This document shows, piece after piece, positions 19,059-24,681 of a stretch of DNA of 64,000 nucleotides. Each line of letters begins with the position of its first letter. The stretch's first letter is position 1. The DNA lies in the IMG/VR virus record IMGVR_UViG_3300025684_000015, positions 33,887 through 97,886 of that record; one strand, given 5' to 3'. The position numbers were made by a program, and so were the translations under genes. The notes beneath the pieces are model-generated. The model saw only the letters and a list, made by a program, of their open reading frames with translations, searched no databases and was not told where the DNA came from. The stretch comes from a virus.

Positions 19059-19403
19059 TTACGTTTGAGTACCTTTATTTGCTAAAACGTTAGTACTAAA
19101 TTTATCACCAGATGTAATTACACATGTGGTACCACGAGTTTTATTTACTACTATAAATGTCCATGTTAATGTATCATAATTAATCCACAATGAATGAAAA
19201 AGACCTTCACCAGTCGATGTTTCACTAGGTGCTACAAATATAATTTCTTCATCATATTTATTTTTTAAATTTTCTACAATATCATCTGTTTTTCCACAAA
19301 ATATTGGTAGTTGCATTGTGCTCACCCGAGGAGTAGCATCATTAGCAAAAACTAAAGTAGAAGCACAAACGAGTAAAGTAAACATTATTACATATCTTTT
19401 CAT
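19059..19403 (-). CDS. Secreted hypothetical protein
   Basis: Signal peptide, CG...KY.EE...TWT...TC pattern. Confidence 0.65.
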   Translation of the reverse strand: MKRYVIMFTLLVCASTLVFANDATPRVSTMQLPIFCGKTDDIVENLKNKYDEEIIFVAPSETSTGEGLFHSLWINYDTLTWTFIVVNKTRGTTCVITSGDKFSTNVLANKGTQT

Positions 19404-19419
19404 AATGATACTTCCTCTT

Positions 19420-19668
19420 AAAAAAACGAATGGTAGGTTATTCTGTTACTAGGAAACCTACCGAAACCCTATCCGACTATGCTGCTAGAGCGTAATCTTG
19501 AGGAGCAAAGTTATCGTTTGCATTTACTTTTGTGATTCTCCGCTGCCTTCACGTATCTGTCGATCCTATTTCGCCCCCATCATAAGCACACTCAGTAAAT
19601 GTGTTTATGGTGGAGGCGGTGGGTACTGCCCCCACGTCCAGCCTACATCCATCCAGTTTCACTGAATC
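19420..19668 (-). ncRNA. ssrA: Two-piece (circularly permuted) tmRNA, alphaproteobacterial type
   Basis: Acceptor piece ends ...GTGGG-GGCAGTA-CCCAC-CGCCTCCACCA (CCA at 19610-19608); 29-nt hairpin spacer; coding piece starts GGGGGCGAAATAGGATCGAC at 19578; G3.U70 pair; tag ANDNFAPQDYALAA* at 19521-19477; outer ends approximate. Confidence 0.93.
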
Positions 19669-19673
19669 ATTTT

Positions 19674-19681
19674 TATTTATA
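19674..19681 (-). promoter_or_regulatory. T4-type late promoter TATAAATA driving tmRNA
   Basis: Exact motif immediately upstream of the acceptor piece. Confidence 0.7.
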
Positions 19682-19685
19682 CTAC

Positions 19686-19814
19686 TTACTTACAAAGATC
19701 TTCATACTTCGTGGAGTGTACTCTATGTTTTGACATGTCTCTACCTAAATATCCTGGCGTTTTTTCTTTACTATTAAACATTTTAGATAATAACTTAACA
19801 AGTTTTTTGAGCAT
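19686..19814 (-). CDS. 42-aa basic small protein (MLKKLVKLLSKMFNSKEKTPGYLGRD...)
   Basis: GGAGAG RBS, amphipathic N-terminus; below ORF-track cutoff. Confidence 0.5.
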   Translation of the reverse strand: MLKKLVKLLSKMFNSKEKTPGYLGRDMSKHRVHSTKYEDLCK

Positions 19815-19925: not shown

Positions 19926-19933
19926 TATAAATA
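19926..19933 (+). promoter_or_regulatory. T4-type late promoter TATAAATA
   Basis: Exact motif upstream of the + strand secreted-protein operon; GAGG RBS follows. Confidence 0.75.
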
Positions 19934-19978
19934 AGATTGAAATACAAACTTTTATTATCTATTTTATGAGGATTTAGA

Positions 19979-20533
19979 ATGTTTAAGAAGCTAGCAATCT
20001 GTGCTAGCTTTATTATGTATATATCATTACCGGCAATGGCACAAGAACAAGACGTCATTGTTACTGACTCGACAAGTAATAGCACAGTGACAACGAACGG
20101 TCAAATGACCACAACGGTAAAACAACCACCTCCGTCCGCAATCTCACCACAATTTAGTAGTGGTAGCAATAGTGATCTATGTACTATTGGCGTAGCGGGT
20201 GCTGTCCAAACGCAAATTCTTGGTATCTCTGCAGGTACCACTTACACCGAAAAAAATTGTATCAGATTAAAAAATGCTAAGACTTTATACGATATGGGTA
20301 TGAAGGTCGCAGCAGTGTCTGTCATGTGTCAAGATTCAAAGATCTTTGATGCTATGAATCATGCTGGTACACCCTGTCCATATAATGGAACAATTGGTGA
20401 TGCCGCGCGTCTTGGTTGGGAAACCCACGTTGAGACTACGAGAAAAGAATTAGAAGATTCGGATAATATCAATGTTAAAGAAGCTGCTACTGTTGGTGGT
20501 ATGGGTCTTTTGGCCTTCTTACTGCTACTCTGA
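19979..20533 (+). CDS. Secreted/membrane-anchored Cys-rich protein
   Basis: Signal peptide (AMA), PPPSAISP, Cys-flanked beta-hairpin, AGTPCP, hydrophobic C-terminal tail. Confidence 0.75.
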   Translation: MFKKLAICASFIMYISLPAMAQEQDVIVTDSTSNSTVTTNGQMTTTVKQPPPSAISPQFSSGSNSDLCTIGVAGAVQTQILGISAGTTYTEKNCIRLKNAKTLYDMGMKVAAVSVMCQDSKIFDAMNHAGTPCPYNGTIGDAARLGWETHVETTRKELEDSDNINVKEAATVGGMGLLAFLLLL

Positions 20534-21377
20534 AAGTATTGCCCCGTATCCAGGTCGAACTGGTAATGCCGCTAGTAATGGGCATCAATGGGTAATGAAG
20601 AATATTCTGCCTGACGTCGCAGGGTTGGATATTAATGCAGTTATTTACAATTATACGATTCAAAAGAAAACTGAAGATGCTGCCACTGTGCATATTCAAA
20701 ATGAAAACGCTAGTGGGTCTGGATATATTTTTAGAGAGACTGACGAATGGAGACCAGGATCATTGGGAGGAACTATAATCAATAAAGTCGTTCAAGTGAA
20801 TCCTGGAATTCCAAGAGCCGCATGGGGAGATGGATCTATTGCTGTTGAGGGTGATGGTTCAGTTACTGATGCAAATGTAAGTTATAATTACAGAGTTAAT
20901 CCTTGTTTTGATCCACAGTTTGATCCCAATTGTCCAGGATATGTTGAACCTAAACTGGACATTGAAATACCTACAGTAGATCTAACTACATTATATGACG
21001 CAACTAAAGATGAAAACGTAGATTTAAGTAATGAAGAATTAGTTCTTATACAAGAAAATGACGAGCAGCTAGAAAAAGAAAAAGAAAAAGAAAAGGAAGA
21101 AGCTGAAGAAAAAGTTAGAAAGTACAGATTAGAAAAAGCTTTATCTGCTACTGATGCTTCAGCCTTATTCGCAGAAAATCAATTAATTCAACAAATGAAT
21201 GAAATTGCTAATTTAGCTGTAATTGCTCAAGGATACAATAAAACAATATCAGGCGGCGCATATAAAGAAACTATTGAATTAGTTGATTCTAAATTGCCTG
21301 ATAACGGAACAGGTTTAAGAAATAACTTAGCTCAACAAATATTGCATAATGAATTAGTGGATATGCAATACAAGTAA
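20472..21377 (+). CDS. Secreted protein: beta-sandwich N-domain, CFDPQFDPNCPG linker, helical C-domain
   Basis: Signal peptide; domain pattern read from translation. Confidence 0.7.
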   Translation: MLKKLLLLVVWVFWPSYCYSESIAPYPGRTGNAASNGHQWVMKNILPDVAGLDINAVIYNYTIQKKTEDAATVHIQNENASGSGYIFRETDEWRPGSLGGTIINKVVQVNPGIPRAAWGDGSIAVEGDGSVTDANVSYNYRVNPCFDPQFDPNCPGYVEPKLDIEIPTVDLTTLYDATKDENVDLSNEELVLIQENDEQLEKEKEKEKEEAEEKVRKYRLEKALSATDASALFAENQLIQQMNEIANLAVIAQGYNKTISGGAYKETIELVDSKLPDNGTGLRNNLAQQILHNELVDMQYK

Positions 21378-21411
21378 TATTATGTCACTCTAAACTTATA
21401 GGAGAAAACAC

Positions 21412-21942
21412 ATGAGATATGTGTTCACTAAACAAAAAGTTATAGCATTAAGTGTAGGCATGGGCATATTAGGGTCTGGCTTAACTTATGCTAAGGCAGA
21501 ACAAGTGCCAATTAATGGTATTGTAACATCTAGATGCATTATTCAAACTGACACTGCTGGTGTGTTTGGAAACCCTAATGCGTATACACTAACAACTGCA
21601 CCAGCTGATGGTGGATTACCACCTATTATTCGTTTTGATGTAACTCTAGCTGATGCTTATTATGCAGTAATTACTCCACCAACTGAATTTTCATCTAGTC
21701 CAGCATTACCAGATCAAGTAACGTTTACTGGTAATACAACAGTTGAGGCAGTATCTGATGCAACAGGCATGGGTTCATATGAATCAAATAAAATTCAAAC
21801 TGGTATGACTGACAAATATGATCTCACCGCAACTGGAAGTACATGGTTTAAAACAGCATCTGTCGCAACGATGGGTGGTAGTAAATCATTTCCAGGTGGA
21901 AACTACACAGCACTAGTAACTGCTGAATGTATTGCTCAGTAA
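21412..21942 (+). CDS. Putative fimbrial/pilin-like subunit
   Basis: Signal peptide (AKA), N-terminal I.G.V...C, C-terminal GGNYTALVTAEC resembling chaperone-usher pilin GxY strand; Thr/Ala/Gly-rich. Confidence 0.5.
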   Translation: MRYVFTKQKVIALSVGMGILGSGLTYAKAEQVPINGIVTSRCIIQTDTAGVFGNPNAYTLTTAPADGGLPPIIRFDVTLADAYYAVITPPTEFSSSPALPDQVTFTGNTTVEAVSDATGMGSYESNKIQTGMTDKYDLTATGSTWFKTASVATMGGSKSFPGGNYTALVTAECIAQ

Positions 21943-22360
21943 TAGGATAGTGTTTGTTATGTTAAAAAATATTATATTACCACTAGCAGTATTAGCATTA
22001 TATGCTGGTACTGCTAGTGCGCATGAAATGATTCCAACATATCCAAAGCTAAGTACCGTAGCTATAGATGGTGTGTATAAAACCACTATGAAGATGTTTA
22101 ATAAGCGGGAAGATGTTGAATTTTATGAAATCGGCGTATTCGATAAAGACTTTAAAGAAATACCATTTGTGTCAACTTATAAGATATTAAAAATAAGATA
22201 TCTAAGTCATGTTACTTTTGATGTGTATATTCGAAAAGCTGATTACGAAGCTGCAACATACATTTGTTCTAAAAGTAAATTAAGAAAAGCTAGTGATATA
22301 AGAACTGCTATATCTTCTAGAATATGTTCAAAGTTTCAGCATCAAAGACAAAACAAATAG
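21932..22360 (+). CDS. Putative pilus-chaperone-like periplasmic protein
   Basis: Signal peptide (ASA); P.Y...M.M.N......YEI.V.D pattern reminiscent of PapD N-domain; start probably at MLKNII. Confidence 0.4.
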   Translation: MLSNRIVFVMLKNIILPLAVLALYAGTASAHEMIPTYPKLSTVAIDGVYKTTMKMFNKREDVEFYEIGVFDKDFKEIPFVSTYKILKIRYLSHVTFDVYIRKADYEAATYICSKSKLRKASDIRTAISSRICSKFQHQRQNK

Positions 22361-22786
22361 GTGAATTTTATGAAGTATTTAGCGATAATAATAACCAGTC
22401 TTTTATTTAGTATAGAAGCCATGGCAGAAAATAGTTCACTCAATTTGCAAATGCCATCACCTGGAACTCAATATGGCCAAGATAGTATTCGATCAGGAGA
22501 AATTGATTGTAAAAATGCTATTGGTGGATCAACCAATTTTGAGTTTGGAGTAACAGGAATTATTGACAATTACAATAGTCCTTTCTCTAATGACAATGGT
22601 GCATCTACTAAAGATATTGGCGTATATGCTAGAATTACAATCCCTTTAGATGGACCTAAAGAACGAATCAATTGTAATTCTTTATATGAATTAGAATTAC
22701 GAAAAAAACGAATAGAAGTTTTAAAGCTCCAAGAAGAATTAGAAGCTTTAAAGAAATTAAACGCTCAAAGCGGCTTTGAAAATTAA
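22361..22786 (+). CDS. Secreted protein with Cys-flanked beta-hairpin and C-terminal coiled coil
   Basis: Signal peptide (AMA); C...FEFGVTG...IGVYARITIP...C. Confidence 0.7.
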   Translation: MNFMKYLAIIITSLLFSIEAMAENSSLNLQMPSPGTQYGQDSIRSGEIDCKNAIGGSTNFEFGVTGIIDNYNSPFSNDNGASTKDIGVYARITIPLDGPKERINCNSLYELELRKKRIEVLKLQEELEALKKLNAQSGFEN

Positions 22787-22876
22787 AATGTACTTTATTG
22801 AAGTTTTAAGATGGGCTATAGCCGTTCTAAAACAGAAAAGAATCAAACGAGCATTAAAGCGCTCTAGGAGAAAATA

Positions 22877-23311
22877 ATGTACGAATATAGAGTTAAAGTC
22901 AACAAAGTAGTAGACGGTGATACCGTTGATGTTGATATTGAATTGGGATTTGGTGTTGTGCTATCTGATGAACGTGTAAGAATTATGGGTATTGATACTC
23001 CTGAAAGTCGCACTCGTGATTTAACAGAAAAAGCATTCGGTCTTGCAGCTAAGAAAAGATTGCAAGAACTTCTTGGTGATGTTGCAGTTTTAAGAACACA
23101 AATTGCTAAAAATGGTGAAGATATGAAAGGTAAGTTTGGCCGTGTCCTTGGTGACTTTGTTGCTGAAGATGGTCGAATGATTACCGAAATTATGATAGAA
23201 GAAGGACATTGCGTTCCTTACTTTGGTGGAAGTAAAGAAGAAACTCAGGCTGCACACATGGTTAATCGTGAAAGATTGATTGCCGAAGGTGTAGTTACCT
23301 TAGACGATTAA
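22877..23311 (+). CDS. Thermonuclease (SNase) family nuclease
   Basis: VVDGDTVD, RIMGIDTPE, GKFGRVLG. Confidence 0.9.
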   Translation: MYEYRVKVNKVVDGDTVDVDIELGFGVVLSDERVRIMGIDTPESRTRDLTEKAFGLAAKKRLQELLGDVAVLRTQIAKNGEDMKGKFGRVLGDFVAEDGRMITEIMIEEGHCVPYFGGSKEETQAAHMVNRERLIAEGVVTLDD

Positions 23312-23323
23312 GGAGAGATTCAT

Positions 23324-23536
23324 ATGTATGATTTATATTCTAAAAAAGAAAAAATATATTTCCTTATTTGCGGAATTTTAATGGCTTTAGGATTATCAGT
23401 AACAACTTACTTTTATTTTAAATCTAGAGTTATTTCAATGCAATGGGAACAATCTTTTACAACTCCAAAAGAATACTGGTCAAAAGTTCCAAAATGGGAA
23501 TGGAAACCAGTATTTAAAGAAGACAAATTAGGTTAG
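23324..23536 (+). CDS. Small membrane protein
   Basis: One TM segment, AGGAG RBS. Confidence 0.55.
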   Translation: MYDLYSKKEKIYFLICGILMALGLSVTTYFYFKSRVISMQWEQSFTTPKEYWSKVPKWEWKPVFKEDKLG

Positions 23537-23546
23537 GAGAATTCAA

Positions 23547-24134
23547 ATGCTTACAACAATAATAGATCAATTAGTTAATTTCTGGCAATTTACAATTGTT
23601 GGTATACTCGTACTTATCGGGTTTATTGCTAATCTATTTGGTGTTGATAATGATAAAGAATTGGTTAGCTTTTCATACGAAGAAATGCCTAACATGCGAC
23701 CTATTAAAATAGAAACTGCGGGCAAAGGTTTCTGGGGAGCTATATGGATGTGGTTTGTGGGTGTGCGTCAATGGGAAATTGCTGAAGATTTTAAATATAA
23801 ATTGCAAAATGAAGAATTTGTAATTCCAGCAGGATTTACTTTTGATGGCGCATCAGTACCTAAATTTTTAGCTACTTGGTTATCACCAACTGGGGTATTG
23901 TTAATGGGTGGTCTTATTCATGACTACGCATACAAATATCAAAGACTACTTAAAGTTGATGGTACTACAACGCATCTTATGAATCAAAGACAAGCTGATA
24001 TGATCTTTAGAGACATTAATATTGAACAAAATGGATTCCATTTACTTAACTACTTAGCCTATTGGGCTTTACGTATTGGTGGTTTTGTTGCATGGAATGG
24101 TCATAGAAAAAGAAACGTGCAAATAGGAGAATAA
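23547..24134 (+). CDS. DUF1353 family protein
   Basis: IPAGF.FDGASVP...IHDYAY...ADMIF...ALRIGG. Confidence 0.8.
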   Translation: MLTTIIDQLVNFWQFTIVGILVLIGFIANLFGVDNDKELVSFSYEEMPNMRPIKIETAGKGFWGAIWMWFVGVRQWEIAEDFKYKLQNEEFVIPAGFTFDGASVPKFLATWLSPTGVLLMGGLIHDYAYKYQRLLKVDGTTTHLMNQRQADMIFRDINIEQNGFHLLNYLAYWALRIGGFVAWNGHRKRNVQIGE

Positions 24135-24135
24135 C

Positions 24136-24681
24136 ATGGCAGAATTCGAATTTGCTGGAACCACCTTTCGTGGTGGAAAAATGTTTATGGTTCTTACTGC
24201 TCTATCAACTCTAGGCGGTGCTGCTTGGGGTGGATTCGAATTCTATAATGACTATAGGAATATGAAAGAAATTGTTGAAAACATCGATGTGGATGCAATT
24301 AAAGCTGAAAATACTTTAGTTATTCAAAAGATGGATGAACAAATGATTCGTATTGAAGAAGCTATAGAATATACACGAGACATTAAATCTGGTTTAAGAG
24401 ATGATATTCTTTCGGTTGAAAAGCAAGTAGATCGTATGGAAGACAAAATTAGATCTTCTGAACAAGAAACTCGTGAACTTATAGTAAATGCAGAAGAACG
24501 ATTTGAGGCAAAAAGAGACGCTCTACAAAACGATTATGACCAAAAGGCCAGTCGTCTTGCAGAGCGAAATGATAATACTATAAAAGACCTTGAGACAAAG
24601 GTAGCTCGAGATCTGAAGGACCTTGAAGATCAGTTGACAAAGAAGTTGCAGCGGTCACTGGACAATCCACTTGCGAACTAA
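24136..24681 (+). CDS. Membrane-anchored coiled-coil protein
   Basis: N-terminal TM (LTALSTLGGAAWGGF) then long heptad repeats. Confidence 0.7.
   Translation: MAEFEFAGTTFRGGKMFMVLTALSTLGGAAWGGFEFYNDYRNMKEIVENIDVDAIKAENTLVIQKMDEQMIRIEEAIEYTRDIKSGLRDDILSVEKQVDRMEDKIRSSEQETRELIVNAEERFEAKRDALQNDYDQKASRLAERNDNTIKDLETKVARDLKDLEDQLTKKLQRSLDNPLAN

Follow-up and report, generated by a model that had tools for sequence, protein, structure and literature searches.

What might a phage build in the envelope of its host with a small set of exported proteins? The question is raised by five overlapping or abutting plus-strand open reading frames (ORFs), here named P1 to P5, that span positions 19979-22786 of a 64,000-nucleotide (nt) stretch of viral DNA. 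This stretch, the window, is the final 64 kb of a 97.9-kb phage contig, IMG/VR record IMGVR_UViG_3300025684_000015, which is 57% complete according to CheckV. A reading made from the sequence alone had taken the five genes for a late-expressed operon resembling a minimal phage-encoded pilus or fibre assembly system, and the present analysis partly supports that sequence-only reading. Together with a sixth gene further downstream, p181, the operon makes up a conserved cassette. We consider, with a probability of about 0.55, that its products form an envelope system with a chaperone-subunit core (P4 and P3) that operates without an usher, in which P3 would polymerise, P5 would serve as a platform and the remaining products would form a membrane module.

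The predicted fold of P4 and its pairing with P3

The 142-amino-acid (aa) fourth product had been likened to a single-domain periplasmic chaperone. Alignments of homologues favour a start at ATG 21959, which gives P4 a length of 133 aa in place of the 142 aa of the longer form starting at 21932; for P5 they likewise favour ATG 22370 (138 aa) over the alternative start at 22361 (141 aa). Mature P4 has about 112 residues in one domain, all 31 of the aligned homologues are similar in length, and there is no hydrophobic segment beyond the signal peptide. When the AlphaFold2 (AF2) model of P4 was searched with Foldseek, six hits were obtained at E<1e-3, all of them chaperones of chaperone-usher systems (SfaE, DraB, PapD twice, SafB and the PapD of the PapD-PapK entry; E 5.6e-4 to 8e-4), and FimC, Caf1M, FaeE and CupB2 were found further down the list. 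VIA-align, run against 48,161 representative chains, matched P4 to FimC at Z 9.3 (chain residues 2-118, 101 aligned, root mean square deviation 3.0), to SafB (9.1), YadV (8.9), CupB2 (8.3), FaeE (8.1), PapD (8.1) and CsuC (8.0), and equally to MSP domains, which scored Z 9.1-9.3. The likeness to a chaperone was thus borne out by both programs, which place P4 with the N-terminal domain of FimC, SafB and PapD. A chaperone-type fold of the PapD-N/MSP kind is therefore supported for the modelled protein by two independent aligners, at the level of fold only; the sequence model PF00345 did not match P4. Two invariant cysteines, Cys103 and Cys123, fall on the last two strands, and an invariant K or R follows the last strand. 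A copper site of the His-brace or YcnI/PCuAC type was also considered for P4, as its mature N-terminus, HEM(T/I)PTYP, is invariant in the phages. This candidate was dropped because the bacterial homologues have Gln there and because the fold matches PapD-N better; PCuA and the Cu-only superoxide dismutase appeared only lower in the Foldseek list.

The third product, P3, had been called pilin-like from its ends. It was modelled as a confident immunoglobulin (Ig)-like sandwich, and its Foldseek list consists mostly of chaperone-usher subunits (CfaB, FimF/G, PapGII, PapA, Caf1 and Csu). The specific likeness to pilins is weaker, since those E values are weak (3.6e-3 to 5e-2) and generic sandwiches score best in VIA-align. 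A search of a protein atlas returned an SCPU-annotated bacterial cluster for P3 with a score of 0.96, no Pfam or SCPU sequence model matched, and a fold search of BFVD gave only weak, uncharacterised matches. The fold thus suggests that P3 is a pilin but does not by itself establish it. Two cysteines of P3, Cys42 and Cys173, are invariant. Ahead of the fold lies a conserved 12-residue mature N-terminal peptide (residues 30-41) that is unstructured in the model; its pattern, V-P-I-x-G-x-V-x-S-R-C, has alternate hydrophobic residues and a central Gly and ends at Cys42.

To the two single models was added a prediction of the complex, for which mature P3 (30-176) and mature P4 (22-133) were each supplied with an alignment. 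The interaction prediction score from aligned errors (ipSAE) was 0.71 (0.71, 0.71 and 0.73 in the separate runs), against 0.00 for the best of three controls. In the calibration of this score, 58 of 80 solved complexes and 2 of 110 mismatched pairs attained 0.71. The runs agreed in at least 88% of contacts, with a predicted local distance difference test (pLDDT) score of at least 84 for the partner. Residues 168-175 of P3 contact residues 118-125 of P4 in rising register, and these strands are therefore parallel; residues 42-44 of P3 contact residues 122-120 of P4, and there the strands are therefore antiparallel. Residues 22-28 and 47-52 of P4 also belong to the interface, and the P3 peptide 30-39 lies outside its confident part. 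Donor-strand complementation, as seen in PapD-PapK and FimC-FimH, is characterised by a chaperone strand that runs parallel to the C-terminal strand of the subunit. The geometry of the predicted P3-P4 complex is of this kind, and P4 is thus predicted to bind P3 through strand complementation, in line with the check on a chaperone-pilin complex that had been proposed with the sequence-only reading.

Several points weigh against an envelope system built on a chaperone-subunit pair. The ipSAE is the model's own confidence, and the P3-P4 result may partly reflect a remembered likeness, because chaperone-pilin complexes have already been solved. The second chaperone domain is absent from P4. In VIA-align, the best matches to P3 are generic Ig and adhesin sandwiches at Z 7.4-7.6, and chaperone-usher pilins reach only about Z 6 (Z 6.0 for the PapGII pilin domain). 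Classical pilins have nothing that corresponds to the invariant Cys42/Cys173 pair of P3. Finally, the Usher, PapD_N, SCPU and fimbrial sequence models found no match in the phage record.

As the sequence-only reading had stated, no classical usher of about 800 aa accompanies the genes. PF00577 at E<=1 matched nothing in the phage record, nor in three relatives, two of 120 kb and one of 34 kb that is 98% complete, and the largest protein of the cassette has 301 aa.

Gene layout, export signals and the other products

The coordinates of the operon and of its surroundings are collected in Table 1. The description of five genes running against the dominant strand holds, as the ORF map places them at the head of a plus-strand island (19979-24681) set within minus-strand genes. 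P1 and P2 overlap by 62 nt and the remaining intergenic gaps are of at most 34 nt. In some relatives (for instance at locus L009) the P1/P2 overlap is only 4 nt, and both genes are therefore real. The number of genes had to be revised: the order of the five is strictly co-conserved, but the conserved unit includes a sixth gene, p181.

Table 1. Features of the operon and its surroundings (window positions).
Feature	Position	Strand	Description
114-aa protein	19059-19403	-	signal peptide and two Cys; phrog_25396 (unknown function); beyond the tmRNA from the operon
Permuted tmRNA, alphaproteobacterial	19432-19700	-	Rfam RF01849 102.6 bits, E 6.7e-29; RF04321 93.8 bits
TATAAATA, T4-type late-promoter-like motif	19926-19933	+	45 nt before the first (P1) ATG
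P1, 184 aa	19979-20533	+	signal peptide, Thr/Pro-rich linker, domain with 4 invariant Cys, C-terminal hydrophobic tail
P1/P2 overlap	20472-20533	+	62 nt read in two frames, as the P1 C-terminal hydrophobic tail and the P2 signal peptide
P2, 301 aa	20472-21377	+	signal peptide, Gly-rich N-terminal domain, acidic coiled-coil-like stretch
P3, 176 aa	21412-21942	+	exported (by pattern), Ig-like beta-sandwich in the AF2 model; pLDDT 89.9, core 97-98
P4, 133 aa	21959-22360	+	exported (by pattern), single-domain PapD-N/MSP-like in the AF2 model; pLDDT 80.4
P5, 138 aa	22370-22786	+	exported (by pattern); Cys47...Cys102 pair, then C-terminal coiled-coil-like helix
Three inserted genes	22877-24134		staphylococcal-nuclease homologue (PF00565, phrog_452); 70-aa membrane protein; DUF1353 protein with N-terminal hydrophobic segment
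p181, 181 aa	24136-24681	+	N-terminal membrane anchor, long coiled-coil-like region, invariant C-terminal ...ALDNPLAN

The motif TATAAATA had been taken for the promoter that heads the operon. It is indeed placed close upstream of P1, and among 12 related loci there are 6 that have it no more than about 90 nt ahead of P1; in the T4-like relatives its position is kept, and none of the small-phage loci L009, L012 and L014 is among the six. Against this, the motif is not over-represented in the AT-rich window, where it occurs at chance frequency (11 found versus 10.6 expected). Judged by these features, transcription of the operon looks late.

Sec-type signal peptides and cysteines able to pair had been noted in all five products, and closer inspection agreed. 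Each N-terminus shows K/R, a hydrophobic core and a small-residue cleavage pattern of the Sec type, and the number of cysteines in the mature products is even in every case (4, 2, 2, 2 and 2 from P1 to P5). No lipobox Cys was found at the predicted cleavage site in the window products or in their homologues. These N-termini bear on the suggestion that the products are parts of the virion, or of its assembly, made in the cytoplasm, with hydrophobic segments that are not export signals. The late-promoter motif would suit such parts, as would the location near structural genes in small phages. We consider this very improbable, given five N-termini of Sec pattern with even, conserved cysteine counts, homologues of P3 to P5 in bacterial chromosomes, the periplasmic-chaperone fold predicted for P4 and the lack of any structural annotation among the PHROG matches.

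In profile searches of Pfam, NCBIfam and PDB sequences none of the six proteins had a significant match, and in PHROGs only families of unknown function were matched (P1 to phrog_20531 at 7.8e-16 and P5 to phrog_37374 at 6e-10), none with a structural annotation. The hydrophobic tail of P1 is a probable inner-membrane anchor. P2, for which no family, PDB or protein atlas match was found, has an invariant cysteine pair (C..P...P.CPGY) in its Gly-rich domain and a conserved C-terminal ...LVDMQY motif. The sequence of P5 contains two strand-like, amphipathic segments, 57-65 and 83-93, which include the invariant E58 and R88; they are linked by a loop of variable length, bracketed by the invariant Cys47 and Cys102 and followed by the helix, which is heptad-like. 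A fused form of P5 was seen in one protein only, which has a Pro/Gln-rich tail and no known domain. By hhalign, no relation was found between P2 and P3 or between P1 and P5. In the window, P5 and p181 are separated by the three inserted genes; such inserts vary by locus and include, for example, an esterase/lipase at L047:8898-9626.

The contig carries T4-type replication and structural genes, as judged by PHROG matches, and its major capsid protein shares 66% identity with the C48C1 phage protein and 61% with the one from the Pelagibacter myophage HTVC008M. The transfer-messenger RNA (tmRNA) gene, which lies close upstream of the operon and divergent from it, was detected by Rfam, and ARAGORN made no call for it. 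This alphaproteobacterial-type tmRNA beside the operon fits an alphaproteobacterial, possibly SAR11-type, host.

Distribution of the cassette and its proposed role

At least 594 IMG/VR loci encode a relative of P1, a count that is a lower bound. Gene order was scored in the best 80 loci, 52 of which were informative in having at least 3.6 kb downstream of P1. The order P1>P2>P3>P4>P5 was invariant in 52 of 52, which answers the synteny check that had been proposed for the operon, and p181 followed P5 in 50 of the 52, directly adjacent in 35. When loci were retrieved through P3 instead, all 13 had the five genes in identical order. The families themselves are large and all unnamed, with 1322 clusters for P3 and 2081 for P4 (E<=1e-3, clusters at 90% identity). 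Small phages carry the cassette too, one carrier record being 34 kb long and 98% complete, and on a 55-kb contig it stands directly after two pairs of tail-fibre and tail-fibre-assembly genes. It ranks with the more common gene sets of marine phages that lack annotation and is found in myo-, podo- and T5-like phages, in the last as the P3-P4-P5 core.

The cassette is a composite, by gene content, of a module A (P1, P2 and p181) and a module B (P3, P4 and P5), each of which occurs separately elsewhere. Module A is seen in the Pelagibacter podophage HTVC115P (MN698247, locus L016, 31233-34354), where gp54 is a homologue of P1, gp49 is a homologue of p181 and gp53 is P2-like, only the C-terminal LPD...HNELVDMQY module being common (pairwise E 3e-6). 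There these homologues come after tail-fibre-like genes, and P3 to P5 are absent. Interspersed among them, gp52 and gp48 are further small membrane or coiled-coil proteins. Module B was found in the chromosome of Nitratireductor sp. ZSWI3 (locus L017, 6601-9420) as two tandem P3-P4-P5 triplets between genes for a corrinoid protein and a trimethylamine methyltransferase (MttB). A P4 profile matched 6 of 401 sampled Pseudomonadota genomes, Nitratireductor included, and the other five all have the arrangement P3-P4-P5-P3' with housekeeping neighbours, in the rpoN/hpf region. No usher (PF00577, E<=0.001) was detected in five core-carrying bacterial genomes, Nitratireductor not being among those checked.

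Among cultured phages, tblastn with P5 (E<=0.01) found matches in 180 Vibrio phage records, mostly T5-like; P3- and P4-like neighbours of these matches were examined in Vibrio phage pVp-1 only (NC_019529, locus L108, 2639-5437). In pVp-1, gp077 to gp079 form a P3-P4-P5 triad, with hhalign probabilities of 97.7% for gp077 to P3 and 85.7% for gp078 to P4, gp079 being the P5 relative. An 861-aa protein flanks this triad on one side, and two small genes followed by holin and endolysin flank it on the other. The tblastn searches with P2, P3 and P4 against 50,697 phage records, HTVC008M included, gave no match. Scans of viral contigs with two distant members of the P3 family as single queries also found nothing; the alignment of the distant P3 relatives is too divergent for locus searches.

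The neighbours of the pVp-1 triad bring to mind lysis. P1 and p181, which carry membrane anchors, and the coiled-coil proteins P2 and P5 might bridge the inner and outer membranes with P3-P4 as a periplasmic strut, in a trans-envelope complex that would contribute to breaking down the envelope, or to the timing of that event, like spanins or alongside them. Transcription that looks late would suit this, as would the i-spanin-like layout of p181, with its N-terminal anchor and periplasmic coiled coil predicted from sequence, and the position of the pVp-1 triad two small genes upstream of holin and endolysin. In HTVC115P and at locus L090 the cassette ends a tail-fibre block, and in T7-like phages the lysis genes stand at the end of that block. 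However, the bacterial P3-P4-P5 genes have housekeeping genes around them and neither a prophage nor a lysis setting, and because of these chromosomal copies we take the core for a general assembly device and not for a lysis tool. Moreover, no o-spanin is present among the five products, all of which lack a lipobox, known spanins consist of one or two proteins and not six, and neither holin nor endolysin adjoins the cassette in the window. A lysis-linked complex is therefore unlikely in our view.

The same tail-fibre neighbourhood can be read in another way. Receptor-blocking genes such as llp and cor are typically found beside receptor-binding genes, and Llp of phage T5 protects progeny from adsorbing to debris. 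The cassette follows tail-fibre and tail-fibre-assembly genes directly in podophage-like contigs and in HTVC115P, and the triad follows a large gene in pVp-1; all products are exported, by their signal-peptide pattern. A stable P3-P4 heterodimer, or P3 delivered by P4, might thus bind and block the phage's own receptor or another envelope protein and bring about receptor masking or superinfection exclusion without any fibre. Yet the sequences are very highly conserved across morphotypes that presumably use different receptors, and the bacterial chromosomal copies, some of them with a second P3 paralogue, look like major and minor subunits of a polymer. We hold masking of this fibreless kind to be about as improbable as the lysis complex.

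We favour an usher-less chaperone-subunit system and propose the following course for it. The six cassette products would leave the cytoplasm through Sec late in infection. P4, as a single PapD-N-like domain, is predicted to hold P3 with its last strand (118-125) parallel to the C-terminal strand of P3 and antiparallel to the first. The free N-terminal peptide of P3 may then take the place of the P4 strand in the subunit that follows, so that a short polymer would form. P5, the only other core protein that both bacteria and Vibrio phages keep beside P3 and P4, is a candidate for an assembly or outer-membrane platform that replaces the usher; the case for such a platform is weak, because a soluble hairpin would look identical in sequence. 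P1 through its C-terminal anchor, P2, and p181 through its N-terminal anchor and coiled coil probably tie the assembly to the inner membrane.

Our best guess at the role of the cassette is a late change to the surface or envelope of the infected cell, for example one that masks receptors, keeps progeny from re-adsorbing or makes cells aggregate. Action on the envelope at the end of infection is suggested by the position after tail-fibre genes, by the lysis genes beside the triad in pVp-1 and by the apparently late transcription. On SAR11-type or Vibrio cells, a structure made late in the envelope could have consequences for superinfection, for the loss of progeny on debris or for aggregation. 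Since pVp-1 and its relatives (for the core) and HTVC115P (for P1, P2 and p181) are in culture, these proposals are directly testable.

Comparison with known assembly systems

The closest likeness is to the chaperone-usher pili (Fim, Pap, Saf and Caf1, and the archaic Csu or SCPU type), which also pair a Sec-exported subunit with a chaperone. P4 has the predicted fold of the N-terminal chaperone domain and, in the modelled complex, its last strand runs parallel to the C-terminal strand of the subunit; P3 ends right after that C-terminal strand, and an invariant basic residue follows the P4 strand. The cysteine pair on the last two strands of P4 presumably resembles the F1-G1 disulfide of Caf1M-type chaperones. 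The differences are equally plain. The cassette has no usher, and its chaperone has one domain whereas the classical chaperones have two, PapD_N and PapD_C, which form a cleft. P3 has an N- and C-terminal cysteine pair, the set always includes P5 as a small third protein, and the cassette is phage-borne and seemingly transcribed late.

A different comparison is offered by the curli genes of pelagiphages. In pelagimyophages and in podophages of the HTVC023P type, a variable region harbours an exported csgF-csgG-csgA/B cluster (PMC7029224, PMC9599517), and a five-gene operon is also described in one of these studies (PMC7029224). Like that cluster, the cassette is an exported multigene envelope module that marine myophages and podophages have in common and that is foreign to a host presumed to be of the SAR11 type, and it raises the same questions of aggregation, exclusion or a pore. 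The proteins are unrelated, however, and the cassette has no CsgG, CsgF or curlin. The occurrence of csg clusters in pelagiphages led us to consider whether the operon is a diverged copy of such a curli (type VIII secretion) operon. We rejected this: PF03783 (CsgG) had no match in the phage record or in five related records, no Pfam curli family was found in the five proteins, the tblastn searches with P2, P3 and P4 were negative for HTVC008M as for the rest, and the Ig sandwich of P3 and the PapD-like fold of P4, as modelled, are not those of curli components.

Growth of a donor-strand fibre without an usher has been described in two other settings. In the Elr/WxL pilus of Enterococcus faecalis, donor-strand complementation by a chaperone primes the pilin, and donor-strand exchange then extends the fibre with no usher (bioRxiv 10.64898/2026.10.17.759780). 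With its membrane anchor and its separate sequence family (DUF916/DUF3324), the Elr chaperone differs from P4, which is soluble as judged by its sequence; the Elr host has a single membrane and a sortase-anchored fibre, whereas the hosts of the cassette have an outer membrane. In the Pam pilus of bacteria of the candidate phyla radiation (CPR), Ig-like pilins are served by PapD/FimC-like chaperones predicted to insert strands, with no trans-envelope machine (bioRxiv 10.64898/2026.03.03.709456, PMC13278184). The chaperones of the Pam system, likewise unrelated to P4 in sequence, differ from it in having a second domain and, at the C-terminus, a membrane helix; the Pam pilins also have two domains, and the hosts lack an outer membrane. 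The trait that Elr and Pam share, a membrane-anchored chaperone in a host without an outer membrane, is not seen here, as the carriers of the core are Pseudomonadota and their phages.

We found no published description of the cassette in the literature. A bolder reading of it would be a third usher-independent donor-strand fibre route, present in diderms and in marine phages, in which P4 feeds P3 to an oligomeric outer-membrane P5 and which SAR11-type and Vibrio phages use late to coat or link cells. We regard this as conceivable though doubtful; if it were true, the most abundant bacteria of the sea would be changed in adsorption, in aggregation or in sinking. Should P3 and P4 act as predicted, half a chaperone would suffice for donor-strand assembly in a cell with two membranes, with no need of an usher, pilus biogenesis would be more varied than is now known, and a three-gene fibre kit would be defined. 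Set beside the chaperone-usher, Elr and Pam systems, the cassette would be a new variant of chaperone-guided fibre assembly, one that dispenses with both the usher and the second chaperone domain.

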